This document shows positions 4,711 to 63,006 of a DNA stretch of 63,006 nt, piece by piece. The notes beneath the pieces were generated by a model. The model had not been told where the DNA came from, did not search any database, and worked only from the letters and a program-made list of their open reading frames with translations. The stretch is from a bacterium. GTDB lineage: Bacteria; 4484-113. Numbering within the stretch: position 1 is the stretch's first letter; each line of letters begins with the position of its first letter. A program made the position numbers and the translations under genes. Location: contig JAGGTK010000037.1 in NCBI GenBank assembly GCA_021163765.1, forward strand, positions 1 through 63,006, in the 5' to 3' direction.

Positions 4711-5804
4711 GTAACAAGACACTCAGCGAGCTTGAGATCCTGGAGTTCTTCCGTAAAGAGCTTGGCCTGACGCATCCGCATCCGATGAACCTGGCGGGCA
4801 ACACAGACGACGCTGCGGTTATGCCGCTTCTGCCAAAGGACTTCTCAACTTATGCCACCGGCAAGAGGACTAGACTCGGAGACCGTGCCGATTCTCTCGT
4901 CTTTACCCAGGATGCGATGATAGAGAACATCCACTTCCGCCTGGACTACAGCACGCCTGAGCAAATAGTCGCCAAGTGCATGACGGTTAACGTGTCCGAT
5001 CTGGCTGCGATGGGAGCGTCGCCACTGGGCGCACTCGTTCACGTAGGGCTACCGAAGCCCTATGCCGTTAGAGAATTCCTGGCAAGCCTGACCAGGGGCT
5101 TGCGGCGGTCGATGCAACGGTACAGCTTCACGGTATTCGGGGGCGACCTTACTGCGGCCCGTGATTTCACCATATCCGCAGCCCTGATCGGTCGGATCGA
5201 CCATCGCAGGATGATGCTCCGCAGCGGGGCAAAGGCCGGCGATGTGCTGTGCATTTCTGGAACGTTGGGATTGGCGTCTCTCGGGCTGAAGCTCCTGGAA
5301 GCCCGTAGAAAAGGAAGAATCAGCGTTGCGGAACTCAGGCGATTCCCCCGCTCAACTGAAAAACTTCTTGCGCCTCGCGCACGCCTTGCTCTGGGACGAA
5401 AGATGGCTGAAGCGGGGCTTGTTACAAGCTGCATTGACCTGTCAGACTCACTGGCGCGCTCACTCAGGCTGCTGGCAGAGCAATCGCACGTTGGCTTCAG
5501 CATAGAGCTTTCATCCAGGCTCCTGCATCGCGAAGTCCGGAAATACTACGGACACCTCGATTCCCGCAGGCTGGCAGACATCACGTTTTCAGCCGAAGAG
5601 GATTTCGAGTTGCTCTTCACGATAGGCGCTTCATATGCAGAAAAGGCGCATCGCCTTCTGCCGCGGGGAGTAATCCCCATCGGCACTGCCTTGGCCCACG
5701 AGAACGGCATCCTCGCCTTCCACCGCGGCAAGCGTATCGCCTTCAAGAATGGCGGCTTCGAGCACTTCAGCAAGCGTCACCGCCGCTATGGGGACTGCCG
5801 GTAG
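4707..5804 (+). CDS. thiL: Thiamine-monophosphate kinase
   Basis: DDAAV, DAMIENIHF, NVSDLAAMGASP, GGDLT, RSGAKAGD, CIDLSDSL, EDFELLFT. Confidence 0.92.
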   Translation: MSNKTLSELEILEFFRKELGLTHPHPMNLAGNTDDAAVMPLLPKDFSTYATGKRTRLGDRADSLVFTQDAMIENIHFRLDYSTPEQIVAKCMTVNVSDLAAMGASPLGALVHVGLPKPYAVREFLASLTRGLRRSMQRYSFTVFGGDLTAARDFTISAALIGRIDHRRMMLRSGAKAGDVLCISGTLGLASLGLKLLEARRKGRISVAELRRFPRSTEKLLAPRARLALGRKMAEAGLVTSCIDLSDSLARSLRLLAEQSHVGFSIELSSRLLHREVRKYYGHLDSRRLADITFSAEEDFELLFTIGASYAEKAHRLLPRGVIPIGTALAHENGILAFHRGKRIAFKNGGFEHFSKRHRRYGDCR

Positions 5805-6463: not shown

Positions 6464-7762
6464 TCACTCCAGCATAGCTTCGCCCGCAAGAGTGTCCGTC
6501 AGACAGCCACGTCGCTTCAAGAAGCGCCCACGGGCGATTACCGTATCGACGTTATCAGCTCCGATATAGTAACCCAGTTCCCTGTAGTCACCGGTGTCCA
6601 GAACCACTATGTCAGCATCCATTCCGGGGGCAAGAGACCCCTTGGTATATCCTCGGCCGACGGCGAACGCTGCATTCTTGATGTGTGCGTTTATCGCCTC
6701 GTCGCATGCCATACCCATCCGCAGGCCGGCCAGCGTAAGCACAAACGATGGGTCAAACACCAGGCTGCTTCCCGGATTCAGGTCTGTCGCCAGAGCCACA
6801 GCCGCGCCCGCGTCAATAAGCTCGCGCACCGGAGCGTTGAGGGCCGTCTGTGTGAAGAACATCGTTGCTGGTAAAAGCACGGCGATAGTTCCCGACTCTG
6901 CGAGCTTCTTAATGCTCTCGCTGCCCATACCCGCGAGATGGTCCACCGATGTTGCGCCAAGCTCCACTCCAAGCGCGCTGGTGCCGTCATCGCCGAACTC
7001 GTCCGCGTGCAGCTTGAGCAGAAAGCCCTGCTCCTTTGCCGCCAGGAGTATCCTCCTGCCCTCTTCCCTGGTCAGCGCGAGGGGGTCCACAAACACGTCG
7101 CAGAACTCAGCGAGCTTTTCCCGGCGAATCACCGCAAGCGTCTGTATCACTTCGTCTATGTACTTCTCGCGGCGGTCCGCAAATTCAGGCGGTATCAGGT
7201 GCCCGCCAAGGTATGTCGGCACAATCGTGCCCGCGAACTCGCTTTGCAGCCTGGCGAACGCACGAAGGGTGCGCAGCTCGCCCTCCTTCGTCAGCGCATA
7301 GCCGCTCTTGGCTTCAACCGTGGTAACTCCGTGGTCTGCCAGCATCCGAAGGTGCCTGCGGCCGTTTTCGAGCAGCTCATCCTCGGTCGCGTCAAGCGTT
7401 TTCTGGCGCGTGTATGCGATGCCTCCGTCGGCCTCGGCGATCTCGTGGTAAGTCGCGCCTTTGCAGCGCGCAAAGAACTCGTGAGCACGCGAGCCTGCCC
7501 ACAGGAGGTGGTTGTGGCAGTCCACAAATCCGGGCATGATAACTCGTGCGCCTGCGTCATACTCGACACACCTGCCGTTCATAAGGGACTTCTCAGGCGG
7601 ATGCTGCGACAGGTAGTTTATCTTGCCCGATTCAGTATCGATGCCTACGAAACCGCCGAATATGATATTCAGGTCGCACAGGGCTTCCTGGCGCTTGGGA
7701 GCGTGATACGGCTCGCGTAGCGTGAGAATCGGTCCCCGGGTCCGAAGAAGAAACTTGATCAC
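6464..7762 (-). CDS. hutI: Imidazolonepropionase
   Basis: PGFVDCHNHL, GGIAYT, GVTTVEAKSGY, FCDVF, LHADE, SVDHL, ALATDLNPGSS. Confidence 0.95.
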   Translation of the reverse strand: MIKFLLRTRGPILTLREPYHAPKRQEALCDLNIIFGGFVGIDTESGKINYLSQHPPEKSLMNGRCVEYDAGARVIMPGFVDCHNHLLWAGSRAHEFFARCKGATYHEIAEADGGIAYTRQKTLDATEDELLENGRRHLRMLADHGVTTVEAKSGYALTKEGELRTLRAFARLQSEFAGTIVPTYLGGHLIPPEFADRREKYIDEVIQTLAVIRREKLAEFCDVFVDPLALTREEGRRILLAAKEQGFLLKLHADEFGDDGTSALGVELGATSVDHLAGMGSESIKKLAESGTIAVLLPATMFFTQTALNAPVRELIDAGAAVALATDLNPGSSLVFDPSFVLTLAGLRMGMACDEAINAHIKNAAFAVGRGYTKGSLAPGMDADIVVLDTGDYRELGYYIGADNVDTVIARGRFLKRRGCLTDTLAGEAMLE

Positions 7763-7792
7763 GGACGCTATTTTAGCAAATCCGCGCTCGCG

Positions 7793-7975
7793 TCAATCCT
7801 CACCGCAGGCTTCAAATGCCTTACAGCCAAATGACTCGTCAATTGTGCGGTGCTCGTAGTCACTCTCCGGGTTCAGGCACTCGCCCATTTTGGCGCCGCC
7901 CTCAATCTCCGCGCCGTCCTGCGCCCCCGGCGCGAAATACCGGCAATTTCGGCATATCTCACTCTTGGATTCCAT
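7793..7975 (-). CDS. Small Cys-rich protein, HiPIP-like or other metal-binding fold
   Basis: CRNCRYF...GECL...FGCKAF spacing; G-rich RBS upstream; no signal peptide. Confidence 0.55.
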   Translation of the reverse strand: MESKSEICRNCRYFAPGAQDGAEIEGGAKMGECLNPESDYEHRTIDESFGCKAFEACGED

Positions 7976-8031
7976 ACCGCCCCCCCGAACAGGTCTTGCA
8001 AATTATGATAGCACAGAAGCATAGCCACAGA

Positions 8032-8104
8032 CTACCCAAACTCGATCCCCTGCACGAGGGGCAGGTCGGTGCCCCAGTTCACGGTGTTCGTCTGCCGGCG
8101 CATA
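8032..8104 (-). repeat. Orphan copy A of the ALDH gene 3' end (73 nt)
   Basis: Aligns to 9286-9358; encodes [23 protein letters not shown] versus native ...[14 protein letters not shown]. Confidence 0.95.
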
Positions 8105-8142
8105 AGCAACTTCCTCCCAGACTCAGCAGCAAGGCTGGACAG

Positions 8143-8373
8143 CTACTTCAACGCTCTAAGAAACTCATCATGAGCAATACCAGCCTGACGCAGTATTCCC
8201 TGCAAGGTGCCTGACTTGACCTCCCGATGCAGCGGCACTACGCAACCCCGTTCGCCTTCAGGAGTTGCTCTCTTAAGGATGACATGGCTACCACGCTGAC
8301 GCACTTGCGCGAAGCCAAGCCGCTCTAAAATCAGTATCACCTTCTTGCCTGCGAGCTTCGGAAGCTCAGGCAC
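8143..8373 (-). CDS. hicA: HicA-family toxin
   Basis: LERLGFAQVRQRGSHVILK...VVPLHREVKSGTLQGILRQAGI; GTG start overlaps the hicB stop. Confidence 0.92.
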   Translation of the reverse strand: MPELPKLAGKKVILILERLGFAQVRQRGSHVILKRATPEGERGCVVPLHREVKSGTLQGILRQAGIAHDEFLRALK

Positions 8374-8581
8374 GAACAGAGACCTCAAAAGTCGTCAGCT
8401 GGGGCTTCTCACCGCCCGCAGAAGGGAACTCCTCCAGATAAAGCTCTGTAGCTTCTTTCAGATTCGCAAGAGCCTCCTCCTGTGTATAGCCCTGGCTGAC
8501 CGTGCCAATCTCCGGGCACTGAGCCACATACATATCCTCTTCCTTCCACAGAACCGCTGTGAGTTGTCTCGTTTGCGCCAT
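8366..8581 (-). CDS. hicB: HicB-family antitoxin (short, no obvious DNA-binding domain)
   Basis: YVAQCPEIGTVSQGYTQEEALANLKEATELYLE. Confidence 0.92.
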   Translation of the reverse strand: MAQTRQLTAVLWKEEDMYVAQCPEIGTVSQGYTQEEALANLKEATELYLEEFPSAGGEKPQLTTFEVSVRA

Positions 8582-8620
8582 CAACTATCATTATACCTCA
8601 GCAACTCGCCCGTTCATGCC

Positions 8621-8724
8621 CTACCCAAACTCGATCCCCTGCGCGAGCGGCAGGTCGGTAGACCAATTGACGGTATTCGTCTGCCGGCGCATATAGGCTT
8701 TCCAGGCGTCAGAGCCGCTCTCGC
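8621..8724 (-). repeat. Orphan copy B of the ALDH gene 3' end (104 nt)
   Basis: Aligns to 9286-9389; same peptide [33 protein letters not shown] with only synonymous differences. Confidence 0.95.
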
Positions 8725-8783
8725 CCCTTTCATTTTACAGCCATAGGTTATAATAAACTGACTGCCGAACATCGGAGAATCTT

Positions 8784-9056
8784 ATGAACGGTAGATACAT
8801 TTTAAGTGAATACGTTGAGGAAGCAATGGCTTCAGCCTCCTACGATAAGCTGGAAGATGGCACGTTCTCAGGGCGCATCGCGCAGTGTCCGGGAGTCGTC
8901 GCCTTCGAGAAAAGCCTCCGGCAATGTGAAGAGGAACTCCGCTCCACTCTTGAAGAGTGGATTCTCCTCGGACTTCAAATGGGGCATAAGCTTCCCGTAA
9001 TCGCAGGAATAGACCTCAACGCGGAGCCAACTCGTGAGCCAGTGGACGCCCTGTAA
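8784..9056 (+). CDS. hicB: HicB-family antitoxin
   Basis: EDGTFSGRIAQCPGVVAF...CEEELRSTLEEWILLGL..GHKLPVI. Confidence 0.88.
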   Translation: MNGRYILSEYVEEAMASASYDKLEDGTFSGRIAQCPGVVAFEKSLRQCEEELRSTLEEWILLGLQMGHKLPVIAGIDLNAEPTREPVDAL

Positions 9057-9267
9057 GAGAAGAGACTTCATCCAGAAGCTGAGGAAACTAGAGTTTGATG
9101 GGCCCTTTTCAGGAAAGCGCCATCAATTTATGGTTTATGAAAACCATCGCCTTGCGATACCGAACGTTGCGGAGTACTCGGTACCGCAGTTGAGAATGCT
9201 ATTGAAGGAAGTCGAGATAATACTAGAAAGAAAGATTCCTCTTGAAAAATGGGTAGAGCTTTCTTAG
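9034..9267 (+). CDS. hicA: HicA-family toxin
   Basis: FIQKLRKLEFDGPFSGKRHQFM...LAIPN...SVPQLRMLLK; overlaps the upstream hicB. Confidence 0.85.
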   Translation: MSQWTPCKRRDFIQKLRKLEFDGPFSGKRHQFMVYENHRLAIPNVAEYSVPQLRMLLKEVEIILERKIPLEKWVELS

Positions 9268-9285
9268 AAACGTTAGCAGGATTCC

Positions 9286-10809
9286 CTACCCAAACTCGAT
9301 CCCCTGCGCGAGCGGCAGGTCGGTGCTCCAGTTCACCGTATTCGTCTGGCGGCGCATATAGGCTTTCCAGGCGTCGGAGCCGCTCTCGCGCCCGCCGCCG
9401 GTTTCCTTCTCGCCGCCGAACGCGCCGCCGATCTCCGCACCGCTGGTTCCGATGTTCACGTTCGCGATACCGCAATCCGAGCCTGTAACGCTGAGGAACC
9501 GGTGCGCCTCCTTCACGTCGTCCGTGAATATCGCGCTGGAAAGCCCCTGCGGCACGCCGTTGTGCAGCTCAATCGCTTCATCAAGCGTCCGGTAAGACAT
9601 CACGTATAAAATCGGCGCAAAAGTCTCGTCGCACACCAGCGGAAGCTGCTTCGGCGTCTCCACGATGCACGGCGTCACGTAACAGCCTCCGGGATACTCC
9701 TTGCCCCGCAGCTTCTTCCCGCCATACACGACTTTGCCACCCTCGCCCTGGATGCGCTTGATGGCAGCAAACATCAGCTCCACAGCGTCCGTGTCCACCA
9801 GCGGCCCCATCAGCGTTCCTTTCCTCAGCGGATTGCCGATGGGCACCTGCTTGTACGCCTTCACAAGCGCCTTTACCAGCTCATCCTTGACCGACTTGTG
9901 GGCGATGATGCGGCGCGTGGTGGTGCAGCGCTGGCCGGCTGTGCCCACCGCGCCGAACAGGATTGCTCGGATCGCCAATTCCATATTCGCGCTGGGCGTT
10001 ACGATGATCGCGTTATTACCGCCAAGCTCCAGAATGGTGCGGCCAAATCGTGCGGCAACAACCTGCGCGACGTGGTGCCCCACCCTCGTCGAGCCAGTCA
10101 TCGAAACGAGCTTCAGCCGGTTATCTTCAAGCATCACGTCGCCGATATCTCCGCCGCGCCCTACAACCAGGCTCATCAGTGCCGTCGGCACGCCGTTGCG
10201 CTTCAGCACGCGCTCGGCGATCTTCGTTACGGCAATCGCTGTGAGTGGTGCTTTGCTCGCGGGTTTCCATATCATCGCGTCTCCGCACACCGCCGCAAGC
10301 GCCGCGTTCCACGACCATACCGCGACGGGGAAGTTGAACGCCGAGATTATGCCCACCACACCCAGCGGATACCACTGCTCCATCATGAAATGCCTTTCGC
10401 GCTCGGAAGGCATCGTCAGTCCGTAAAGCTGGCGCGAAAGCCCGACGGCAAAGTCGCAGATATCAATCATCTCCTGCACTTCGCCCACGCCTTCCGGCAG
10501 GATTTTGCCCATCTCCAGCGTCACCAGCCTGCCCAGGTCCTCCTTGTGCTCGCGCAGCTCCAGCCCCAATTGCCGCACTACTTCACCGCGCTTGGGCGCC
10601 GGAACTTCGCGCCAGTATTCAAACGCTTCCTGCGCAGCGGCGGCAATCTTCTCGTAGTCCTTCGCGGTACACTGCCTCACGGACGCGATTCGCTTGCCGT
10701 TGATGGGCGTAACCACATCCAGCTTCTCGCCGCGGCCGAGCCACTTGCCGCCGAATCCGCCGTGATTCACATCCTCGATTCCAAGCCTTTTCAGAAATGC
10801 GTATGCCAT
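9286..10809 (-). CDS. Aldehyde dehydrogenase, family 7 (antiquitin / piperideine-6-carboxylate dehydrogenase-like)
   Basis: [86 protein letters not shown]. Confidence 0.96.
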   Translation of the reverse strand: MAYAFLKRLGIEDVNHGGFGGKWLGRGEKLDVVTPINGKRIASVRQCTAKDYEKIAAAAQEAFEYWREVPAPKRGEVVRQLGLELREHKEDLGRLVTLEMGKILPEGVGEVQEMIDICDFAVGLSRQLYGLTMPSERERHFMMEQWYPLGVVGIISAFNFPVAVWSWNAALAAVCGDAMIWKPASKAPLTAIAVTKIAERVLKRNGVPTALMSLVVGRGGDIGDVMLEDNRLKLVSMTGSTRVGHHVAQVVAARFGRTILELGGNNAIIVTPSANMELAIRAILFGAVGTAGQRCTTTRRIIAHKSVKDELVKALVKAYKQVPIGNPLRKGTLMGPLVDTDAVELMFAAIKRIQGEGGKVVYGGKKLRGKEYPGGCYVTPCIVETPKQLPLVCDETFAPILYVMSYRTLDEAIELHNGVPQGLSSAIFTDDVKEAHRFLSVTGSDCGIANVNIGTSGAEIGGAFGGEKETGGGRESGSDAWKAYMRRQTNTVNWSTDLPLAQGIEFG

Positions 10810-10980
10810 GTGGAAGTTCCTCCTGGGAGTATTCTAGCCGTGAAATGCTCAAAATTGAACCGCACTGGCCAGCTAGACGTAAGTTACAGATTGCTCGGGA
10901 CCAACAAGTTAAGGGTATAACAATATTGATAGCTGCACGAGTGCGGGCGAATCGCCCCGGCGCAGCGGGAGGGAACGATT

Positions 10981-13317
10981 ATGAGCTTCAGCAGCAGTCT
11001 CCATGACGCTTTTGTAGCGCTGGCTATCTGTGCGTTCGCACTTATGACCAGCGCCTGCGGGGGACATGAGCGCAAACCATCAAGCCTGCCTTCGTTACAG
11101 ACGGAGTTGCCAATAGCGCAGTCACCGGTAGAGGTCTCGCTGAACGAAACGCTTGCGGACCTGGAGAAGCTGAAAACTCCCGAGGGTGTCGCGCCGGACC
11201 TCTTCCAACAGCTCAAGGATGAGTTAGCCAAACAGCTTCACATCAATAGCGCTAGCAAAATCATATGCAGGCCCCCAACCGGCGAGGCCAACCGGGTGGA
11301 CGACCTCGCACTTACCGACAATAGCGACGGGACTTACACTCTTACCTGGCATTACCGCAATCTGGGTGACTACGACCAAAACGGCACCGTCGGCATTTCC
11401 GACATCACACCCATTGCGATGCATTACGGCGAAACCTACGACGTCGAGGACGTAAACTGCCTTCTCGCCGTCATCGACGGCAGCGGCAATTGCATCATCG
11501 ATTGCGCCGATATCATGCCTATTGCTGAGGGCTTCTCCAGTGTGGTGGTCGGGTACAAGGTCCGTGTAGCCGATTCATCCCTAGCATTTGAGAATCTCGG
11601 CTCGGTGGGCTTTGAAGCAGCAGAAGGCGCCGTTATTGAGAGGAGAGTTTGCAGCCATTCTTTCTCGGCAGAAGCTGTAGGTGATGGCGTCCTATTTCAG
11701 GTTGTCGCATACGATTCGAGTGGCGAGTTCGGAGAACCATCAGAAACGTTGCCCTTCCCTTTCGGACCTCCGCTTATTCTTGATGTTCAGCCGCGAGAGG
11801 TTTATCTCGATATGGGTCAGGTCTTTACCGCCATAGCCGTTGGGGGGCCCTATGATGAGGACGGCAACCTGAATTTCACAGAGGCTTGGGATATGGGTGA
11901 AGGCGTTTCGCCAAGTAAGCTGAAAACGGCAACAGAGCTGGGCGGAAGTCCGGTAGCGCTTGTCGTAGGCGCGAAACTGGGCACCTACGAGGCATCTCTC
12001 TCTCTACGGAATCAGTTTGGGGAGCATACATATCCATTCTCCTATGAAGTGAGGGAATCGAGTTCTTGGGTTCACTCTTGGAGACCAGGTGAGTGGACGG
12101 ATGTAGATGGGGCAATTTGGCGGCCGAACGGGCATCTTGCGCTCATAGGCTATGCCAAGATTTCACACGATTACGTCGCGGTTGAGTTCACGACCGCGGG
12201 CGAACTCGTATCCGCAAAGACACTGGGCATCCCGGCAGGCGTACGAATCATCTCTCTTCTGACCGATAGCAGAGGGAACATCTACATTGGTGGCTGGACC
12301 GATGCTTACGGTGATGTGTATGGGGACATAGTAGTAATGAAATTGGACCCCGATTGGAATCTCGTATTCGCAAAAGCCTTGGGCGGACCTGCAACTGACC
12401 ATTTCAGCGACTTATGCGTGGATTCTCAGGAGAACATCTATGTAACAGGACAAAGAACAGACTGCCCCTTTTCCCATTGGGACCTTTATGTACTCAAGTT
12501 AGACAAGTATGGAGAGGTAGAGTTTACCGAGGGATGGGATAAAGGCGGATGGATGGATGGGGGGAGAGATATAGCCGTCGATGAGCAAGGGAACATCTAT
12601 ATATCAGGCTCTACGGGGCCTCTTGAAGGAGAAGGAGGCGGACCACTTCTGCTCAAGTTCAGCTTGGATGGGAGCCTGATTTTCGTTAAGCTGTATGACG
12701 GATTAGCGCCAGGAGAGCTTGTGGTTTCTAATACTCTCTATTTCCGCAGCGGTTCTACCATCGGAGAACTGACAAGCGATGGTGATGTCGTGTGGGCAAA
12801 AAATTGGGTGCTACCGGAGAATGTTTCGTTTAATAAGATGCGTGTACTTACACCGGAGCGTTTTCTGCTTCTGGGCAGCCACTGGGAAAGCTACGACGTA
12901 TTAGCGTGCTCACCCCCATGGAGGTCAGTGACAAGCATCCTGCTCATACAGTTGAAAAAAGACGGAACAGTCTCCCTCGCCAAAAAATGGGGACCTCCTC
13001 CACCCACGTATTGGTGGGATGCTTGGACTCCCGTCGCAGCTGACTTGCTCACTGACGACAGCGGAAATGCCTATATCGCCGGATCTTCTCAAGGCAGAAC
13101 TGGCTGCTGGACAGATATGAGCCTGACCGGAGATTTCACTGAGATTGATCTCTCAGCCATGAACATTCAGGGCGAGATTAAAGACCTGCACCTGACGGAA
13201 ACCGTTCTTCCAGATTTAGAGCCCTCCATTCCGCTTGAGGGTGAGATAGACGCCCTTCCAGAGCCCCCTGATAGCCACTACCGAAAAAGTGATTTTATCT
13301 TACTGAAGAATTTCTAA
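10981..13317 (+). CDS. Surface lipoprotein: Fn3-like domain with inserted dockerin-like pair, PKD-like domain, SBBP-type beta-propeller
   Basis: SAC lipobox; GDYDQNGTVGISDITPIA...DGSGNCIIDCADIMPIA; WDMGEG...GTYEASLSLRNQFG; DSRGNIYIGG, DSQENIYVTG, DEQGNIYISG, DDSGNAYIAG repeats. Confidence 0.85.
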   Translation: MSFSSSLHDAFVALAICAFALMTSACGGHERKPSSLPSLQTELPIAQSPVEVSLNETLADLEKLKTPEGVAPDLFQQLKDELAKQLHINSASKIICRPPTGEANRVDDLALTDNSDGTYTLTWHYRNLGDYDQNGTVGISDITPIAMHYGETYDVEDVNCLLAVIDGSGNCIIDCADIMPIAEGFSSVVVGYKVRVADSSLAFENLGSVGFEAAEGAVIERRVCSHSFSAEAVGDGVLFQVVAYDSSGEFGEPSETLPFPFGPPLILDVQPREVYLDMGQVFTAIAVGGPYDEDGNLNFTEAWDMGEGVSPSKLKTATELGGSPVALVVGAKLGTYEASLSLRNQFGEHTYPFSYEVRESSSWVHSWRPGEWTDVDGAIWRPNGHLALIGYAKISHDYVAVEFTTAGELVSAKTLGIPAGVRIISLLTDSRGNIYIGGWTDAYGDVYGDIVVMKLDPDWNLVFAKALGGPATDHFSDLCVDSQENIYVTGQRTDCPFSHWDLYVLKLDKYGEVEFTEGWDKGGWMDGGRDIAVDEQGNIYISGSTGPLEGEGGGPLLLKFSLDGSLIFVKLYDGLAPGELVVSNTLYFRSGSTIGELTSDGDVVWAKNWVLPENVSFNKMRVLTPERFLLLGSHWESYDVLACSPPWRSVTSILLIQLKKDGTVSLAKKWGPPPPTYWWDAWTPVAADLLTDDSGNAYIAGSSQGRTGCWTDMSLTGDFTEIDLSAMNIQGEIKDLHLTETVLPDLEPSIPLEGEIDALPEPPDSHYRKSDFILLKNF

Positions 13318-13436
13318 GTCTCCTCTGTTTATAGCAAGAGAGCCTTATAGGTAGTCGCTTATTTCACCAATATCAGGGAGTGAACCGGTCAAGCAGAACA
13401 CACTGCTGGCATGCAAGCGCTGTGAAGCTGGTCGCC

Positions 13437-13657
13437 TTACCCCAGGAAGCGCCGCGCCGTCTTCTCGTAATCCTCCGCAGTGCATTGCCTTATCGACGCG
13501 ATTCGCTTGCCGTTGATGGGCGTGACCACATCCAGCTCCTCGCCGCGGCCGAGCCACTTGCCGCCAAATCCGCCGTGATTCACATCCTCGATTCCAAGCC
13601 TTTTCAGAAATGCGTATGCCATGTGGAAGTTCCTCCTGGGAGTATTCTAGCCGTGAA
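13437..13657 (-). pseudogene. Orphan copy of the ALDH gene 5' end including RBS and upstream region
   Basis: 13460-13657 aligns to 10647-10844; encodes MAYAFLKRLGIEDVNHGG...RQCTAEDYEK then an unrelated tail and stop. Confidence 0.95.
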
Positions 13658-13676
13658 TGGATGAAAGGTGAACCAT

Positions 13677-13772
13677 GCTGGGTAGGTGAACTGACCAGCT
13701 CAGCAACTACGGACACGGACTCGCGAATTCATTCGCGAGAATGACCGTGTGGAGACTGAAGTCTCCACTCCT
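13677..13772. repeat. Cluster of REP-like palindromes
   Basis: CTCGCGAAT-TC-ATTCGCGAG (13720-13739) inside CACGG/CCGTG; GTGGAGAC-TGAA-GTCTCCAC (13749-13768); imperfect TGCTGGGT...GCTCAGCA stem upstream. Confidence 0.55.
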
Positions 13773-13875
13773 GCTTATCTTAGAAGCACCGCTTTGCCTG
13801 GAACAATTCCCCTGTTCGTGAGTCTGATAAGTGTCAGCAAATGTGCCCTTAGGCACAACGAAAGAAGGGAATATC

Positions 13876-15777
13876 ATGGTCAAGTCAGCGACCCTACGGC
13901 TGGCGGTTATCACCGCCGCGCTGTTGTGCGCTTTCGCATTAGCGTTTGCTTCGTGCGGGAAGGGGAAGCACTCTACCGGGAACGTCGCTCTGCCCTCACC
14001 CACTGGCGACCTGTCGCCCACCGCCTCGCCATCGCAGTCCCCGGACGATGCTCTAGCGGAGCTGGACGCGCTCGCCTGTCCCGAGGGCGTGGACGCGGCG
14101 CTGTGGACGGAGTTGAAGGATGCGTTTGCCGATACGCTCGCTGCCCGTGGAGAAGCCAAGACAGTCTCCACCCCACCCACCGGCGAAGCTAACCGGGTAA
14201 ACGACCTAGCCATTACCGACAACGGCGACGGTACCTATACACTGTCCTGGCATTACCGCAATTTGGGCGATTACGACCAGAACGGCATTGTCGGCATATC
14301 TGACATCACACCTTTAGCGCAGCATTTCGGCGAAACCGTCCCGGAGGACGACCTTAGCCGCACCAGCATCCAGGCGGTGATTGACGGTTCCGGGAACGGT
14401 GTCGTAGACATCGCTGATATTACGGCGATAGCGGCCAATTACCTGAGCGAGTTCAGCGAGTATGTCGTGGAGAGATCGTTTGCGGCGCCGGCACAATATG
14501 CTAAGGTTGGCGCGCTAACGTTGGCGGATGCTACAAGTGACGGGGCGAAGCGCTTTTCGCACATCATCCCCTTTGCGCGACGAATGCTTTTTCGGGTAGC
14601 GCCGTGTCATCCAAGTGGAAAAGCTGGTGTCTATTCCGAGCCGGTAGAGCTTCGCATTGCAGGTGGAGACTGGCATATGCATTGTAAAGACCCGCAGCAC
14701 ACGATGAGAAGTCCTTACGTGGGACCGCAAATGGTCGGCGCTATAACCGCGACGAAGGCAAGGGGCCACTTCAAATGGAATTCGGTAATAAGTGACGAGG
14801 GCATAATCTATGTCATGCTCAAAGGACACAACGGGGGGCTCTGGGCGATTAACCGTGATGGTACCGTCTCGTGGATATTCACTCTTTCCGACCACGAAAT
14901 TCCTGAATTCTCGTCCCCCGCAATAGCCAAGGATGGGATGTTGTATTTCTCGAGCGTATCCCACTTGCTGGCGGTAAATCCCGACGGCAGCCTGAAGTGG
15001 AGAGTAGAGTTGCCTGCGGCTGGCTACTTCAGTAGCCCAACCGTAGGACCTGATGGTGCTATTTACCTGGGCACTGGAGACGGTTTCCGAGATACGGAGG
15101 ACGGCTATCTAATTGCTCTTAATCCGGACGGATCCCTAAGATGGGATTATCTTGCTGGAAGCGGTGTCGTCTCGACGGCGGCGGTCCGTGAGGACGGGAC
15201 TGTTTACTCAGCCACTTACGAAGGCACGGTCTTCGCGTTGAACGGGGACGGCAGCCTCAAGTGGGAGCTGGAAGTTGGCAGAGCGGGAGCGCTGTGGTCC
15301 AGCCCGGCAATAGGCGATGACGGGACTATCTACATAGGTGTTCAGGGCGGGAAATGGAATGCGCCGCCTGAGGGCGACATTGGGTACCTTGACGCGATAT
15401 CTGCTGACGGTTCACTGAAGTGGGAGTTTCAGACAGAGGGATGGATATCATCCTGCCCTGCTATCGCAGAAGACGGGACAGTATACGCCGCCAGCATCTT
15501 TGGCCATCTCTACGCCATCAATCCCGATGGCACAATGAAATGGCGGTTCACCGCGGATTCTCCCATCTTGGGCAATCCGGCAGTTGGCGGGGACGGGCTG
15601 ATCTACATCGCGCCTAATTCGGGTACTGTCTATGCCATAACACCTGATGGAGCGGTGAAATGGTCGCAGGCTGTTTCACCTGCCTGCCCGTACGGTGGCA
15701 ATCCGGTGTTGGGAGAGGATGGCTTGCTCTACATCGGTCTCGGCGACAGCTATTTAGCGATCGGCGACGGATGGTAA
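13876..15777 (+). CDS. Surface lipoprotein: Fn3-like domain with inserted dockerin-like pair, PQQ-like (BamB-type) beta-propeller
   Basis: ASC lipobox; N-terminal module paralogous to the 10981 gene; SSPAIxxDGxxY...AxNPDGSLKW repeats; ATG 13876 preceded by GAAGGGA. Confidence 0.88.
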   Translation: MVKSATLRLAVITAALLCAFALAFASCGKGKHSTGNVALPSPTGDLSPTASPSQSPDDALAELDALACPEGVDAALWTELKDAFADTLAARGEAKTVSTPPTGEANRVNDLAITDNGDGTYTLSWHYRNLGDYDQNGIVGISDITPLAQHFGETVPEDDLSRTSIQAVIDGSGNGVVDIADITAIAANYLSEFSEYVVERSFAAPAQYAKVGALTLADATSDGAKRFSHIIPFARRMLFRVAPCHPSGKAGVYSEPVELRIAGGDWHMHCKDPQHTMRSPYVGPQMVGAITATKARGHFKWNSVISDEGIIYVMLKGHNGGLWAINRDGTVSWIFTLSDHEIPEFSSPAIAKDGMLYFSSVSHLLAVNPDGSLKWRVELPAAGYFSSPTVGPDGAIYLGTGDGFRDTEDGYLIALNPDGSLRWDYLAGSGVVSTAAVREDGTVYSATYEGTVFALNGDGSLKWELEVGRAGALWSSPAIGDDGTIYIGVQGGKWNAPPEGDIGYLDAISADGSLKWEFQTEGWISSCPAIAEDGTVYAASIFGHLYAINPDGTMKWRFTADSPILGNPAVGGDGLIYIAPNSGTVYAITPDGAVKWSQAVSPACPYGGNPVLGEDGLLYIGLGDSYLAIGDGW

Positions 15778-16021: not shown

Positions 16022-16804
16022 TCATTCCCCCGGCCGGTGCACCTTCAAGATGCCGCCCTGCTCCTGGGGCGTAACCAGTATCTCATCGATATTCACGTGC
16101 TTCGGGCGCGAGACCGCCCAGACGATGCAGTCCGCGATGTCCTCGCCAACGAGAGGCTTCATCCCCTTGTAAACCTCGCTGGCCTTCTCCTTATCGCCAA
16201 AGAAGCGAACATCCGAGAACTCCGTTTCAACCATTCCCGGCGATATTACGGTCAATCGCACCGGCTTATCCACAATCTCCACGCGCATCGCCTGCGAGAG
16301 GGAGCGCACAGCGGCCTTCGTCGCGCAGTAAACGCTGCCGCCGGGATAGGCATACCATCCGGCTATACTCGCCACGTTCACGATATTCCCGTTCCCTGAA
16401 TCAATAAGCGCTGGCATCATCTCCTGCGTCATTCGGATCAGCCCAACGACGTTCGTCTCGATCATCACCTGAACGTTTTCTTCAGGAGTTTCCACGAGCG
16501 GATCGACCCCGCGCACCAGTCCGGCATTGTTCACCAGGATGTGCACCGTGCCGAACCTCTCCTTCACCATTGCCCCGAAAGCCCTGACATCGTCCAGCTT
16601 CTGCACGTCCAGTGGAGCGGTGGCGATCTCAACTCCTGGATTATCCCGTGTCACGCGGTTGTGCAGGTCTGCCAGGCGCTCAACGCGCCGCGCTCCCATT
16701 GCGACGTGGCATCCCGCCTTAGCCAGGGCGCAAACCGTCGCTTCACCAATGCCCGCGCTTGCGCCGGTAACAACCGCGACTTTGTCTTTCAGGCCTTCGT
16801 ACAT
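16022..16804 (-). CDS. SDR-family oxidoreductase (YdfG-like)
   Basis: TGASAGIG, LVNNAG, YCATK, PGMVETEFSDVRF. Confidence 0.93.
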   Translation of the reverse strand: MYEGLKDKVAVVTGASAGIGEATVCALAKAGCHVAMGARRVERLADLHNRVTRDNPGVEIATAPLDVQKLDDVRAFGAMVKERFGTVHILVNNAGLVRGVDPLVETPEENVQVMIETNVVGLIRMTQEMMPALIDSGNGNIVNVASIAGWYAYPGGSVYCATKAAVRSLSQAMRVEIVDKPVRLTVISPGMVETEFSDVRFFGDKEKASEVYKGMKPLVGEDIADCIVWAVSRPKHVNIDEILVTPQEQGGILKVHRPGE

Positions 16805-16872
16805 ATCAGCCTCCAAGAGCGTTTAAACGTGCGTCAACAGCCCTAACAGATACGCCCGTTGCCGATAAGCGG

Positions 16873-53600: not shown

Positions 53601-53694
53601 AACCCCTCCTTGTATTCCCGGCGCAGGCCAGTGTGAAATCAATGCGGCCGCTGATTATAGCATAGCGATTCCCCACCGACCCTGCGTCATTCTG

Positions 53695-53800
53695 GTAGGG
53701 GCATCACGCTTTGGCGTGACCGTGCCTGCATCCCCCGGGTAGCGCCGGCTATCCAGCCGGCGATATTTAAGGTCATCCGCCTGGATAGGCGGCTGAACCC
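53695..53800. repeat. GTAG-type REP-like palindromes (inverted pair)
   Basis: GTAGGGGCA-TCACGC-TTTG-GCGTGA; GGGTAGCGCCGGCTATCCAGCCGG (53737-53760) and an inverted variant at 53777-53800 with a compensatory base pair. Confidence 0.6.
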
Positions 53801-57101: not shown

Positions 57102-58607
57102 GTGAAGCTGCTCATCGACAGAACCAGCTCTACACCGGTTTACCTCCAGATAAAGGAGCAGATAATCGCGCTCATCACGTCCGGCGCCCTTAAGCCCGGA
57201 GAAGCCGTGCCCAGCAGCCGGCAACTGGCGCAGGAGCTCGGGCTTGCGAGAAACACCATCCTGCAGGCCTACCTTGAGCTGGCTGCCGAACACTGGATTG
57301 ATGCAAAGCCGGGGAGCCGCACCTGCGTCTCGGACAGTCCCCCCGGCCGCGCCGACCTGTCCCCGCCGGAGCAGATGCGCCCCACCCCGCACGCTCATCG
57401 CGTCGTGGAGATGGACTGGAGCGATTACCAGTTCAGCGGCGAGAGCTTCGCCCTGCCGCGCTACTATGAAAAATGGAAGGGGCCGGAACCGTACATCTCT
57501 TTCGCCAGGGCGCTGCCCGATCCCAGACAGTTCCCCTTCGGCCGCATCAAGAAGGTCTCCAGCAATCTGCTGTGGTATCCGGAGGAATTCTTCTTTGACC
57601 GCGGCCATCCGCAGGGATATCAGCCCCTGGTGGAGCATCTGGAGCTTGAGCTTTCGCGCGAGCTGATCGATATGAGCCCCGGCACCAACGAAATCGTGGT
57701 TTGCGCCGGCTTCCAGGTCGGGCTCAACATGCTCCTCACGCTGCTTCACCGTCCCGGCACGGCCGTCGCCGTCGAGAACCCCACTTACGCCAGTATCCTC
57801 AACGCGCTCATTGCCCGGCGAATGCCCTACGTGCCGGTTCCAATGGAACGCGACGGGATGGACATTGAATACCTGTCACGGTCTATCAAGCGCAAGAATA
57901 TCGGCCTTATCGTAACCGTCCCGACGCTGCACAATCCGACCGCTACGGTTATGAGCCTGGAAAAGCGCGAAGCCCTGCTGCGCCTCGCCCGGAAGCACAA
58001 TATTCCCATTATCGAGGACGCCTGGGCGATGTTCCTCAAAACCGAGGGGCGCGCGATGCCGTCGCTCAAGGCGATGGACGATGGCGGCCACGTCTTTCTG
58101 GTGGGCAGCTTCAGCAAGAGCTTCCTGCCCGGCTTCCGCATAGGCTTCATCTGCACGCCCGGCCCGATGGCCGTGCCGTTGGTAAAGCTCAAGCGCGCAA
58201 CCGAGCGCAGCGACAGCTTCTTCCTGCAGACGCTGCTCCTTGAGTTCATCAAGAAAGGCTACATGGATTTGCACGTCAGGAAAATGGCTAGAATATACAG
58301 TGAGCGGAAGCGGCTCACGGATGCCGCCATGCGCGAGTACTTCCCGCCTGAGTTTCGCTGGGAGGTGCCGGTCGGCGGATTCTCCTTCTGGGTCGAGATG
58401 CCGCGGGGGATTATGAGCGCTGAAATGCTGGAGCATACGGTAAAATATGGAGTTGACTATGCGCCGTCCAGGATGTTTTTTGCCGGCAAGCAGGACAGCC
58501 ACTATATTCGCATCGCGTTCAGCATGCTGACAAAGGCGCAAATCAGAGAAGGTGTCCGGCGGATGGGCACGGCCATCAGAGAATGGAAGGGGGCCGGCGG
58601 GAAATGA
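57102..58607 (+). CDS. GntR/MocR-family regulator with PLP aminotransferase domain
   Basis: PVYLQIKEQI, PSSRQLAQELGLARNTILQAY, VENPTY, HNPT, IIED, GSFSKSFLPGFRIGF. Confidence 0.95.
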   Translation: MKLLIDRTSSTPVYLQIKEQIIALITSGALKPGEAVPSSRQLAQELGLARNTILQAYLELAAEHWIDAKPGSRTCVSDSPPGRADLSPPEQMRPTPHAHRVVEMDWSDYQFSGESFALPRYYEKWKGPEPYISFARALPDPRQFPFGRIKKVSSNLLWYPEEFFFDRGHPQGYQPLVEHLELELSRELIDMSPGTNEIVVCAGFQVGLNMLLTLLHRPGTAVAVENPTYASILNALIARRMPYVPVPMERDGMDIEYLSRSIKRKNIGLIVTVPTLHNPTATVMSLEKREALLRLARKHNIPIIEDAWAMFLKTEGRAMPSLKAMDDGGHVFLVGSFSKSFLPGFRIGFICTPGPMAVPLVKLKRATERSDSFFLQTLLLEFIKKGYMDLHVRKMARIYSERKRLTDAAMREYFPPEFRWEVPVGGFSFWVEMPRGIMSAEMLEHTVKYGVDYAPSRMFFAGKQDSHYIRIAFSMLTKAQIREGVRRMGTAIREWKGAGGK

Positions 58608-59734
58608 GTGAACACTCGCGGCGTCGAAACCCACTCCACAGCCTTATCGCACTGAGTGCGCTGTTCCTGCTCGCAACCGCCCTGATTGCCTGTGGTGGAG
58701 GAGGACCGGGCCGGTACCCCGGGGAGCTTTTGCAGGCCGAAGACCAACGCCTGCCTCCACCTCCCGACGATGGTGCAGAGCCGCCACAGGAAGAATCCAG
58801 TCCGGAGGAGCAGCTCAGCAGCTACCTGTCCGACCAGGCAAGCGGCCTGCAAGCCTGGCCCAGCTCAACCCTGGGTGCGCTGTCTGGCACCGTCTCCATA
58901 ACCGGATACACTCTGATTGACCCGCAATCGCTCGAACCGATTCCTCCGGAGCAGGGGCTCGTCGATGTGCCGCTGCGCGTCGTGGACCCCGAGGATGACA
59001 TAGATTCTGTCACACTCCCTGACGCACAGGGGAATTTCCTGTTCCCCGACCTGCCGCCTACTACAAGCGCAACTCTCAGCGTGCAGTTTGTCGTGGCGGA
59101 AGACGTGGACGGAGACGGCTACGGTTTCGATCCCATTGAATGCAAGCTGCCCGTAAGGATTATGGCTGCAAGGATCACTAGCATTCAGCTTGATATCTCA
59201 CCCTTAGAGCCACTGCACTACGAGCAATTGGGGCAGCCGCCGGATATCTTCAGCACCACGCCAATATCATTCAACTACGGCTATCAGGGGCCGGACGGCG
59301 ACCGGCAACAAAGCCTGGCAATACTGAGATCTCTCGGCAGGGTCTGGCTGGATTCAGACCTGGACGGTGAGTTTTCCCCTGACGACCTGCAATTCGCGGA
59401 CGAGAACGCCAACGGCCTGGGTGACGAGACGGAGGATTATCTCGCCGGCGTTGTCGGCCCGCCGACCGAGGAACGCGTGGTCTTCGGCTCGATTCTCAGC
59501 GTGGTCGGCAATGTCATCACAATCTACAGTTTTGAAGATACGGTCTCTATCGAGATTGCGCTCAACGAAGGCACAATCCTGATTGCCGAAACCGGGGAAG
59601 AGCTCCCGCTAACGCGGCACCTCGTCGGCAAAGACGCGGTGGCGGTCGCGCAGGAATACCGTGACGGCCACATTTCAGCCTCCCTTATAATGGTGCTGCC
59701 TGAAACATACTCGCACGGGCCCGGAGGGCGCTAA
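58604..59734 (+). CDS. Acidic lipoprotein with Ca-binding-like DxDxDG motifs and a small C-terminal beta domain
   Basis: LIACGGGG lipobox; DVDGDG, DSDLDG, DENANG; ATGA overlap with the MocR gene. Confidence 0.8.
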   Translation: MSEHSRRRNPLHSLIALSALFLLATALIACGGGGPGRYPGELLQAEDQRLPPPPDDGAEPPQEESSPEEQLSSYLSDQASGLQAWPSSTLGALSGTVSITGYTLIDPQSLEPIPPEQGLVDVPLRVVDPEDDIDSVTLPDAQGNFLFPDLPPTTSATLSVQFVVAEDVDGDGYGFDPIECKLPVRIMAARITSIQLDISPLEPLHYEQLGQPPDIFSTTPISFNYGYQGPDGDRQQSLAILRSLGRVWLDSDLDGEFSPDDLQFADENANGLGDETEDYLAGVVGPPTEERVVFGSILSVVGNVITIYSFEDTVSIEIALNEGTILIAETGEELPLTRHLVGKDAVAVAQEYRDGHISASLIMVLPETYSHGPGGR

Positions 59735-59885
59735 GTGGTACCTTGATTTATGTGCGAAACCGGTTCTATGCATCCAGCGTATGCCGGGATACAATAAGAG
59801 TGAATAAGTGCATTGACCTGTAATCTGGGGGTGCGATTTGAAGAGATTACTGATACTAAGTTCAGGCCTGGCCATTATTCTCATC
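59453..59885. repeat. Direct repeat copy 1 (lipoprotein 3' end + intergenic + subtilase 5' end)
   Basis: Aligns to 62574-63006 at constant offset 3121. Confidence 0.95.
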
Positions 59886-62420: not shown

Positions 62421-62855
62421 ATGGTAAGGATGGCTGATTTGAAAACCGCGTGCAGCGCACGCCGATGTCCACTATTGCTTATGTCGCTCTTGTCTCTTGT
62501 TAACATTCTCCATTCCTGTGGCTACAGCCCCATGCCTCCCGGGATACGGTTTCCTGATGCTAAAGGTGCTAACGTCGGCCCACCGACGGCGGAACGCGTG
62601 GTCTTCGGCGCAATCCTCAGCGTGGTCGGCAACATCATCACTCTCTATAGCTACGAGGACATGACTTCTGTCGAGCTTGCGCTCAACGAAGGCACAAGCC
62701 TGGTTGCCGAGGATGGCACAGAGCTTCCGCTCGAACGGGATCTCGTTGGCAAAGATGCCGTGGCAGTTGCACAGGAATACCGCGACGGCCATATTGCAGC
62801 CTCCCTCATAATGGTGCTGCCTGAAACATACTCGCACGAGCCCGGCGGAGGCTAA
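62421..62855 (+). CDS. Chimeric lipoprotein (signal/N-terminus like the 61802 gene fused to a duplicate of the 58604 gene C-terminus)
   Basis: GAGGAGG RBS; ILHSCGYSPMP versus MLHACGGPPMP; from 62574 onward VGPPTAERVVFG...LPETYSH duplicates the 58604 gene end. Confidence 0.7.
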   Translation: MVRMADLKTACSARRCPLLLMSLLSLVNILHSCGYSPMPPGIRFPDAKGANVGPPTAERVVFGAILSVVGNIITLYSYEDMTSVELALNEGTSLVAEDGTELPLERDLVGKDAVAVAQEYRDGHIAASLIMVLPETYSHEPGGG

Positions 62856-63006
62856 CTGGTACCTTGATTTATGTGCGAAACCGGCTCTATGCATCCAGCG
62901 TATGCCGGGATACAATAAGAGTGAATATGTGCCTTGACCTGTAATCTGGGCGTGCGATTTGAAGAGATTACTGATACTAAGTTCAGGCCTGGCCATTATT
63001 CTCATC
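62574..63006. repeat. Direct repeat copy 2 (continues beyond the window)
   Basis: Aligns to 59453-59885. Confidence 0.95.
62959..63006 (+). CDS. Start of a second subtilase-type lipoprotein paralogue (partial)
   Basis: TTG start MKRLLILSSGLAIILI, identical to 59838-59885. Confidence 0.7.
   Translation, partial: MKRLLILSSGLAIILI

Follow-up and report, generated by a model that had tools for sequence, protein, structure and literature searches.

Orphan ends of an aldehyde dehydrogenase gene suggest a recombination-driven insertion slot for small cassettes in an uncultured planctomycete

How does a conserved metabolic gene come to be surrounded by additional copies of its own two ends, with toxin-antitoxin and lipoprotein genes lying in between? 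This question is raised by the locus of an aldehyde dehydrogenase (ALDH) gene in the metagenome-assembled genome (MAG) GCA_021163765.1. The window, i.e., the whole stretch of 63,006 nucleotides analysed here, is contig 5 (JAGGTK010000037.1) of this MAG (G000; 1.9 Mb in 99 contigs, 78.6% complete). The nearest named relatives of G000 are MAGs of the Planctomycetales and Phycisphaerae, the organism that it represents is an uncultured planctomycete, and the window sequence was found in hydrothermal-vent metagenomes. A first interpretation, made from the letters of the DNA (the sequence-only reading), had proposed that cassettes arrive without an integrase on DNA from related strains, by one homologous crossover inside the gene and one illegitimate join back into it, whereby the gene end is replaced and the old one stranded. 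The follow-up described here makes it probable, if by no means certain, that the ALDH gene is an insertion slot driven by recombination and not an integrase attachment site. It was based on repeats identified by a repeat finder and by whole-genome self-BLASTN of G000, and on a family set of nine genomes (G000-G008), of which G001 belongs to the same genus as G000 and, together with G002, was used as sister species. The ALDH gene was found in all nine genomes, and its 3' side is covered by a contig in eight of them. The gene, the copies of its ends, each termed orphan when detached from the gene, and the enclosed cassettes are the following (RBS, ribosome-binding site; ORF, open reading frame; aa, amino acids):

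9286-10809, minus strand: intact ALDH gene, of the L-piperidine-6-carboxylate dehydrogenase type (Pfam Aldedh, E 1.4e-135; NCBIfam equivalog NF050084, 810 bits against a 730-bit cut-off)
8616-8727, minus strand: proximal orphan, a copy of the ALDH 3' end of about 35 codons and the stop (112 nt, 91.1% identical to 9281-9392, E 2.9e-37)
8032-8104, minus strand: distal orphan, a copy of the last 24 codons of ALDH and the stop (73 nt, 91.8% identical to 9286-9358, E 1.6e-21)
10647-10861, minus strand: native copy of the 5' repeat, still joined to ALDH and including the RBS and ~52 nt upstream
13460-13674, minus strand: orphan ALDH 5' end with RBS and the first ~54 codons (215 nt, 92.1% identical to 10647-10861, E 2.1e-83)
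8143-8584, minus strand: cassette 1, a hicB-like gene (8366-8584) and hicA (8143-8388) on the ALDH strand (HicA_toxin, E 2.3e-18; HicB-like matches below the Pfam cut-offs)
8784-9267, plus strand: cassette 2, a UPF0150/HicB-like gene (8784-9056; UPF0150, E 4.9e-27) and a 77-aa ORF (9034-9267), convergent with ALDH
10981-13317, plus strand: lipoprotein A, 778 aa with SBBP beta-propeller repeats (Pfam), the cassette between the two 5' copies

The end copies claimed before, namely two orphan 3' ends and one orphan 5' end with its RBS, were thus recovered by both the repeat finder and self-BLASTN. Alignment revealed that all three 3' copies reach the TAG stop in register and lose similarity 0-2 nt beyond it, while the 5' repeat comprises the RBS, ~52 nt upstream of the ATG and ~165 nt of coding sequence. 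The lengths of 104 and 73 nt given earlier for the two orphan 3' ends are about right, but the argument built upon their different end points is weaker than was assumed, because the proximal edges of the copies are fuzzy; the distal, older orphan shows degenerate similarity for ~10-15 nt past its proximal edge. The two hic pairs (0.55-0.6 kb as cassettes, within an overall range of 0.55-2.8 kb for the ALDH inserts and of 73-215 nt for their repeats) are best read from their sequences as two mutually unrelated HicAB-type pairs, and BLASTP identified no similarity between their putative toxins. For the 77-aa ORF of cassette 2, which has no Pfam match even at E 10, the placement among HicA-named clusters comes from the ESM Atlas only (score 0.95). 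A promoter and terminator scan of 7700-11100 yielded nothing above shuffled sequences.

Such an array might be an artefact of assembly, in which contigs of co-occurring strains were joined through common ALDH-end k-mers: the MAG consists of 99 contigs, the contigs available for comparison break in identical repeat cores, and the assembly graph alone would also allow a chromosome without cassette next to a 665-nt circle. Logan contigs placed at 85% likeness, rather than raw reads, served as junction evidence. Those of the likely source run (X1) bridge 8031/32, 8104/05, 8615/16 and 8727/28. Each junction of unique and repeated sequence is bridged by contigs, 8615/16 also by one from an independent study. 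Word depth is similar in the flanking contigs and the cassette contig (23, 25.3 and 20.2) and about double in their common 91-nt core (50.1). As the ALDH copies are 8-9% diverged, they are not one node of the assembly graph walked twice, and the same architecture was assembled independently in G001, G002, G004 and G007, with one of the orphans residing on a 315-kb contig. The concern of a chimeric strain assembly, raised together with the sequence-only reading, was therefore dispelled at the level of the single junctions, and we regard an artefact as scarcely credible. Separate from this, contigs from two other studies (runs X3 and X4) agree with the window only until 8058, a position within the distal orphan, beyond which their sequence is a different one over 255 letters or more; this could mark a further insertion into the distal orphan in those strains. 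Nothing was drawn from the loose ends of X3 and X4 at 8058, 8665, 9324 and 9412, which may be other ALDH-end variants or belong to other organisms, and contig joints leading from 8716 or 9381 to 9604 were ignored, as they have only 24 letters on one side.

The surroundings of the ALDH gene vary among its relatives, and for their description three neighbouring genes are needed (SDR, short-chain dehydrogenase/reductase):

7793-7975, minus strand: Cys-rich ORF of 60 aa, ancestrally the next gene downstream of ALDH (its homologue lies ~70 nt after ALDH in G006)
13831-15777, plus strand: lipoprotein B, 648 aa with a PQQ-like propeller (Pfam), a second variable insert without a duplicate of its own
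16022-16816, minus strand: SDR gene, the ancestral upstream neighbour of ALDH (it adjoins ALDH in G001, G002 and a contig of run X4)

On the 3' side, G006 possesses an empty site, the homologue of the Cys-rich gene following ALDH directly, whereas G000 carries two cassettes and two orphans. G001 has cassette 1 and the distal orphan, the latter as positional orthologue, without cassette 2; G007 has a homologue of cassette 1 (71% identity) and an orphan; G002 has other ORFs and an orphan, located at a contig end; and in G004 a gene with an NYN domain is followed by an orphan and, further on, by a homologue of cassette 2. No orphan was found in G005, nor in G008, where a hemerythrin gene lies 3' of ALDH. 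In total, at least one ALDH 3' orphan is present in five of the eight readable family genomes, with differing cargo, and the site is empty in one. Cassette 2 is 82% identical in DNA between G000 and G004, as compared to 74% for the ALDH genes, and this homology is limited to the two ORFs. On the 5' side, the SDR gene is followed directly by ALDH in G001 and G002, which have no homologue of lipoprotein B, while this homologue stands alone beside ALDH in G007 and G003. Run X4, from another study, contains a contig of 98-99% identity to the window in which only 30 nt separate 10809 from 16029. This contig hence is devoid of both lipoprotein genes, from which it follows that both are polymorphic within what is probably one species. 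The cassette set is thus anything but invariant among relatives, which is what the sequence-only reading had predicted.

Several observations were made on these neighbours in passing. The Cys-rich ORF has no family at E<=0.001, its sole match at a loose threshold being DUF3027 (E 0.16). The N-terminal module of lipoproteins A and B (11200-11525 and 14030-14440), dockerin-like by eye, has ~25 paralogous copies in the MAG, and this module family probably breaks the assembly, because many of its copies sit at contig ends. In X1 no contig was found over 13707-14073 and almost none from there to 17000, i.e., over lipoprotein B and the SDR gene; as the word index nevertheless reports 0.99 of the words of 7700-14000 for this run, no conclusion was based on the gap. 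In G004, an ORF directly behind the orphan and convergent with the cassette-2 homologue (L025, 8652-9212) has a sub-threshold match to GIY-YIG (E 0.0018; 18.9 bits against a cut-off of 22.6 bits) that was not used, though a nuclease at the ALDH site of G004, if real, would matter for the mechanism.

An attachment site would call for a cognate recombinase, located in or near the element or at least somewhere in the genome. The earlier statement that the window lacks integrases and transposases held when six recombinase and transposase Pfam families were searched MAG-wide, none of which matched on the window's contig. Elsewhere in G000 one tyrosine recombinase was identified (PF00589, contig 34; XerD/XerC-like by NCBIfam), together with one PF00239 match, a 126-aa resolvase-like ORF on contig 61, two DDE_Tnp_1 matches on small contigs and one Y1_Tnp match, while rve and TnpB gave no match over the whole MAG. 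An integron integrase was not found, the sole tyrosine recombinase scoring 143.6 bits against a 265-bit cut-off (TIGR02249), and the cassettes are bounded by copies of the ALDH ends, not by attC-like imperfect palindromes. The cassettes may nevertheless be decayed site-specific integrative elements, whose attP carried a replacement ALDH end and which accreted in tandem, or integrase-less cassettes moved in trans. Integration at a gene end with delivery of a replacement end is classical, as are att-separated tandem arrays; moreover, the last ~73 nt, common to all ALDH orphans, could hold a core, and the MAG is incomplete. Cassettes of 0.55-0.6 kb without any recombinase remnant, in a genome with only the XerD/C-like enzyme and the resolvase-like ORF, are not what this explanation leads one to expect, and neither are some nine further target genes, described below, whose repeats are unlike those of ALDH, have no sequence in common with each other and range from 33 to 433 nt, nor the same scar around one HicBA family in many phyla. 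An origin from integrative elements is thus considered distinctly unlikely.

Where the end copies came from can be approached by asking how they differ. Among nine native-orphan pairs of G000, 27, 16 and 64 differences fall on the first, second and third codon position, respectively (binomial p 1.8e-8 against equal thirds), and the share of third positions amounts to 60%, as compared to ~43% by our own rough estimate for unconstrained decay. At ALDH, the orphans of five genomes differ from the native ends by 27 synonymous and 7 non-synonymous codons. In the comparison between genomes, rows setting G007 against the others were shifted by one codon and were left out. In G000 the proximal orphan differs from the native end by 6 synonymous and 1-2 non-synonymous codons, with its last 42 nt being identical, and the 5' orphan by 11 nt (7 synonymous and 3 non-synonymous codons), while in G001 all 10 differing codons are synonymous. 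This third-position bias implies that in many pairs the copies diverged while both were parts of working genes, and consequently that one copy came from the allele of another lineage, which lends support to the proposed arrival on DNA from related strains. The orthologous orphans of G000 and G001, which differ from each other by 10 synonymous and 2 non-synonymous codons, have orphan-specific bases in common in their proximal part, whereas over the distal 35 nt each has the lineage-specific bases of the native gene in its own genome, and the orphan of G007 carries the extra last codon of the G007 gene. These patterns show that the copies have been partly homogenised by gene conversion, i.e., that they evolve in concert.

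The synonymous pattern would be explained in another way, by selection on the orphans instead of import, if these were kept for use, e.g., as a regulatory element (RNA or DNA) or as an ORF of 23-24 aa that follows hicA and starts from a conserved Met. In four of the five complete ALDH orphans the copied stretch sets in shortly ahead of the ATG of this conserved Met, a GGAGG lies 9 nt upstream of it in the distal orphan of G000, and the 10 synonymous against 2 non-synonymous codon differences of the G000 and G001 orthologues would suit such a use. Orphans of G004 and G007, however, have no comparable RBS, the orphans of other genes resemble each other only in being gene ends and in part decay, and the visible gene conversion explains part of the pattern, which together render a function of the orphans very improbable. 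A horizontal homogenisation of the ALDH end among genera was likewise considered and rejected: in the last 40 codons the identity of synonymous codons is not above that of the rest of the gene, and the high nucleotide identity of this end results from conserved amino acids.

The genome-wide self-BLASTN for gene-end duplicates, suggested along with the sequence-only reading, was carried out and, combined with ORF context and Pfam, revealed that ALDH does not stand alone. Some nine further genes of G000 have an end that occurs twice, with a small insert between the copies, giving a density of about ten scar loci in 1.9 Mb, and the repeats of different target genes have no sequence in common. These loci include (HTH, helix-turn-helix; RM, restriction-modification):

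MTAP-like gene: 33-nt repeat, 100% identical; cargo higB and an HTH/M78 antitoxin (higBA)
Terminase-like gene: 47-nt repeat, 98% identical; cargo hicBA
Response-regulator/HD-GYP gene, contig 28: two orphans; cargo four ORFs without known family
Type IIG RM gene, contig 12: 69-nt repeat; cargo a GGACT-family gene
407-aa gene: 38-nt repeat; cargo a DUF2283 pair
M3 peptidase gene: 86-nt repeat; cargo a ParE pair and hicBA
trmD, 5' end: 199-nt repeat
Gene 58583-59734 of the window, last 282 nt and 150 nt downstream: 59453-59885, plus strand, and again 62574-63006 (433 nt, 86.8% identical, E 1.8e-147)

The last of these repeats encloses a lipoprotein gene with an S8 protease domain and a 155-aa ORF (Pfam), and its copies differ by 24 synonymous and 18 non-synonymous codons; it includes the start of the lipoprotein signal peptide, and the second copy lies 3.1 kb further on, with the contig ending inside it. 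Two of the other sites could be compared with an unoccupied state: the MTAP site is empty in G001 and G002, which are otherwise colinear and have one copy of the 33-nt stretch, and the response-regulator site has one copy in G001 and is roughly empty in G002. At the terminase gene of G001 a different two-ORF cassette of 0.9 kb lies between the native end and the orthologous orphan, and the slot is thus conserved with its content swapped. The GGACT cassette (L109 1640-2111, contig 12) is 97% identical in contig 9 of G002, as compared to 82% for the flank, which suggests a recent transfer between the two species.

It is at these loci that the main rival has to be weighed, namely a true insertion with long target duplication, in which DNA is joined illegitimately into a staggered break and both repeat copies are the recipient's own, a phenomenon described for RM systems (PMC2853133). 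The identical 33-nt copies at MTAP, with a single copy at the colinear empty site in G001 and G002, speak for this rival, and the 98% identical copies at the terminase gene accord with it as well. At the response-regulator locus the native end resembles the sister species at 64 of 68 sites, the two orphans at 58/68 and 56/68, and one orphan differs by 1 synonymous and 5 non-synonymous codons, as in decay; in addition, the orphans have 160 nt of cassette sequence in common upstream of them, and a second-order duplication of 232 nt takes in non-coding cassette sequence. The polarity at contig 28 would suit either a cassette carrying its own address copy or a second-order target duplication. What a plain duplication leaves unexplained is the accumulation of 64 of 107 differences at third positions, unexpected for unconstrained decay, the synonymous nature of all seven bases that are unique to the ALDH orphan of G001, and the finding that cassette 2 (82% against 74%) and the GGACT cassette (97% against 82%) are more alike than their flanks. 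The latter implies transfer between lineages, which is not proof that the gene end came along. Long target duplication is therefore judged unlikely as the general explanation.

Some further repeats were seen in G000. At the contig-28 locus, the native stop and the first orphan are each closely followed by a short multi-copy element (5527-5585 and 7196-7279; L107 1528-1586 and 3197-3280). These elements occur also at 53694-53778 of the window, and have ~20 weak scattered matches in G001 and few in G000. A carrier repeat of the repetitive extragenic palindromic type was rejected, since neither the hic cassettes nor their flanks recur elsewhere in the MAG and short multi-copy elements were found only beside the contig-28 orphans. 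On contig 24 (L115; 1693-1778 and 2710-2794) a hicB-like 5' part is repeated around the gene of a 261-aa membrane protein, and on contig 40 (L114; 1090-1131 and 3863-3904) a 42-nt repeat surrounds a DNA methyltransferase-like gene, named by eye, and a 178-aa ORF.

Beyond this genome, relatives of the cassette-2 HicB-like protein at 64-84% identity were collected from 80 loci in many phyla, including archaea, and in 77 of the 80 a HicA-like partner adjoins. Sufficient flanking sequence was available for 79 loci, and in 19 of them the pair is enclosed within 2.5 kb by a direct repeat; when positions were shifted by 2 kb as a control, this held for 11 of 117 (Fisher p 0.008). The repeat takes in an ORF end, 3' or 5', at five loci or more (L129, L175, L181, L187 and L204), counting ORFs from 100 aa upwards, and at some, e.g., L129, the copies differ at apparent third positions, as seen by eye and left uncounted.

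Any mechanism has to account for the architecture and its variation, for a scar that recurs both elsewhere in the genome and across phyla, for copies that diverged in the manner of coding sequence, for the concerted evolution and for the lack of a recombinase. In the mechanism favoured here, small, self-contained cassettes would have come in on DNA that brought along a copy of the ALDH end next to which they now lie: on the side of the stop codon two HicAB-type pairs not related to each other, on the side of the start codon a lipoprotein gene. One join would have formed by homologous pairing within the gene end, the other side being closed by one non-homologous join, which may have taken place in the recipient, as in homology-facilitated illegitimate recombination (HFIR) and in the model of the sequence-only reading, or beforehand, yielding a circle that enters by a single Campbell-type crossover. 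By either route the gene would stay intact, and an extra copy of the gene end would remain on the far side of the cassette. The direct repeats would then continue to be substrates of host recombination, which would homogenise them in part by gene conversion and could also delete or swap the cassette, by which the content of the slot comes to differ among relatives. Of the earlier model, the integrase-free, recombination-driven entry is retained, whereas its join in the recipient is not singled out, since a circle entering by a single crossover would lead to an identical arrangement; the sequence in which the events took place, the linear or circular form of the incoming DNA, the identity of the imported copy and the vehicle are deduced from the products. 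The further proposal that the old end is stranded while the imported one works found no support, given the mosaic ALDH sites, the likeness of the native contig-28 end to the sister species and the identical or nearly identical MTAP and terminase repeats.

A number of points weigh against a slot operated by recombination with imported ends. Since the Logan contigs break at the identical repeat cores of 42 nt (8621-8662 and 9286-9327) and 91 nt (10754-10844 and 13567-13657), the order across these cores rests on the MAG assembly. With 78.6% completeness, and with mobile elements often missing from bins, a recombinase acting in trans is possible. A plain target duplication would account just as well for the repeats at MTAP (33 nt, identical) and at the terminase gene (47 nt, 98%), and a homology of 33-47 nt is short for a RecA-dependent crossover. 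The diagnostic sites of ALDH are a mosaic with respect to G001 and G002 and do not decide which copy was imported, and the response-regulator orphans look foreign or decayed, one of them with its 1 synonymous and 5 non-synonymous codons. The excess of third positions over the ~43%, itself a rough value, was worked out by hand as ~3.5 standard deviations.

A bolder extension, which we hold to be possible though doubtful, is that gene ends are the portable addresses of widespread integrase-free cassettes that circle out and in by recombination in the gene end. A cassette would then travel together with a copy of 30-400 nt from the end or the start of a conserved gene of the host, loop out by recombination between native end and orphan, and re-enter any relative by one RecA-dependent crossover. 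Were this true, native end and orphan would act like integron attachment sites without an integrase, and long target duplications in general would be imported homology and no duplications. Irrespective of this extension, the proposed insertion slot would provide a compact genome with almost no transposases and integrases with a sequence-level route for gaining and swapping toxin-antitoxin, defence and surface-protein genes. On the practical side, the codon-position bias is a simple computable test of import versus duplication, and recent gene gain can be recognised in MAGs at little cost by orphan gene ends, which also cause contig breaks and spurious small ORFs.

How, then, does the ALDH locus compare with known systems? 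Integrative elements at gene ends that bring a replacement end are represented by e14 and phage 21 in icd, SXT in the 5' end of prfC, and ICESt3 with its CIME relatives at fda. Likeness exists in the intact gene with orphan ends as attL and attR, in the 3' and 5' versions and in att-separated arrays, but these elements need a tyrosine recombinase and a fixed core. Here no such enzyme was found, and the cassettes measure ~0.6 kb and target many unrelated genes. Campbell-type insertion-duplication, the laboratory method in which a circle with a gene fragment enters by a single crossover, yields the same order of intact gene, insert and orphan end when the fragment is 3'-terminal; a natural circle was not seen at this locus. 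Minimal mobile elements of Neisseria and integron arrays resemble it in holding variable cargo in slots between conserved flanks, the former leaving no duplicate and the latter, with cassettes rich in toxin-antitoxin genes, requiring IntI and attC.

Insertion with long target duplication was reportedly set out for RM gene complexes by Nobusato et al. in 2000. In later reports, RM complexes are described as inserts of a few kb, without a mobility gene, between repeats of 46-423 bp, some of which overlap a gene 3' end, with a related genome having one copy at the empty site (PMC2853133). As the driving force something inherent to RM systems was suggested, e.g., double-strand breakage of DNA, along with a cycle in which the complex is inserted, amplified and released (PMC2853133; PMC3874152). 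Furuta, Abe and Kobayashi (2010) called for an insert <20 kb, a direct repeat >30 bp, no mobility gene and an empty site with one copy (PMC2853133). By structure, the ALDH locus answers to this description, with its empty site in G006 and a 5' side that is empty in G001, G002 and the X4 contig, and so does the MTAP locus with its 33-nt repeat and the empty sites in G001 and G002. As its cargo is of HicAB type or a lipoprotein gene and holds no R and M genes, the ALDH locus is a variant and not a member of the RM class. Unlike there, cargo in G000 ranges from gene pairs of HicAB, HigBA and ParE type to lipoprotein genes and others, divergence between the copies is often that of coding sequence, pointing to an imported gene end instead of a duplicated target, and the repeats form arrays and show gene conversion. 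An observation left unexplained for 25 years is thereby extended to cargo that does not cut DNA, which argues against the insertion being made by a nuclease of the cargo itself.

Rhs C-terminal displacement and the orphan modules of contact-dependent growth inhibition (CDI) have reportedly been described by Jackson (2009) and Poole (2011). Arrays of effector and immunity genes of the Vibrio cholerae type VI secretion system were explained by HFIR (PMC5361080). Such displacement arrays are like the ALDH locus in their conserved anchor gene, their modules from other strains, the older pieces pushed downstream and the growth of the array, and no integrase is known for them; theirs is the mechanism of the sequence-only reading. 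There, however, the variable toxin end is replaced and a functional toxin tip or immunity gene is stranded, whereas at ALDH the end is an equivalent one, the protein is unchanged, the stranded piece is a silent duplicate and the anchor is a metabolic gene. The divergence of the copies indicates indirectly that, as in HFIR arrays, one of them goes back to a working allele of the anchor gene from elsewhere. In the literature searched, in which subscription journals and supplements were outside the scope, no description was found of toxin-antitoxin cassettes bracketed by gene-end duplicates. The general idea is already in print for other cargo, i.e., for RM systems and for displacement arrays; what the present locus and its counterparts add is a cargo that does not cut DNA, a density of about ten loci per 1.9 Mb, and coding-type divergence of the copies together with gene conversion between them.

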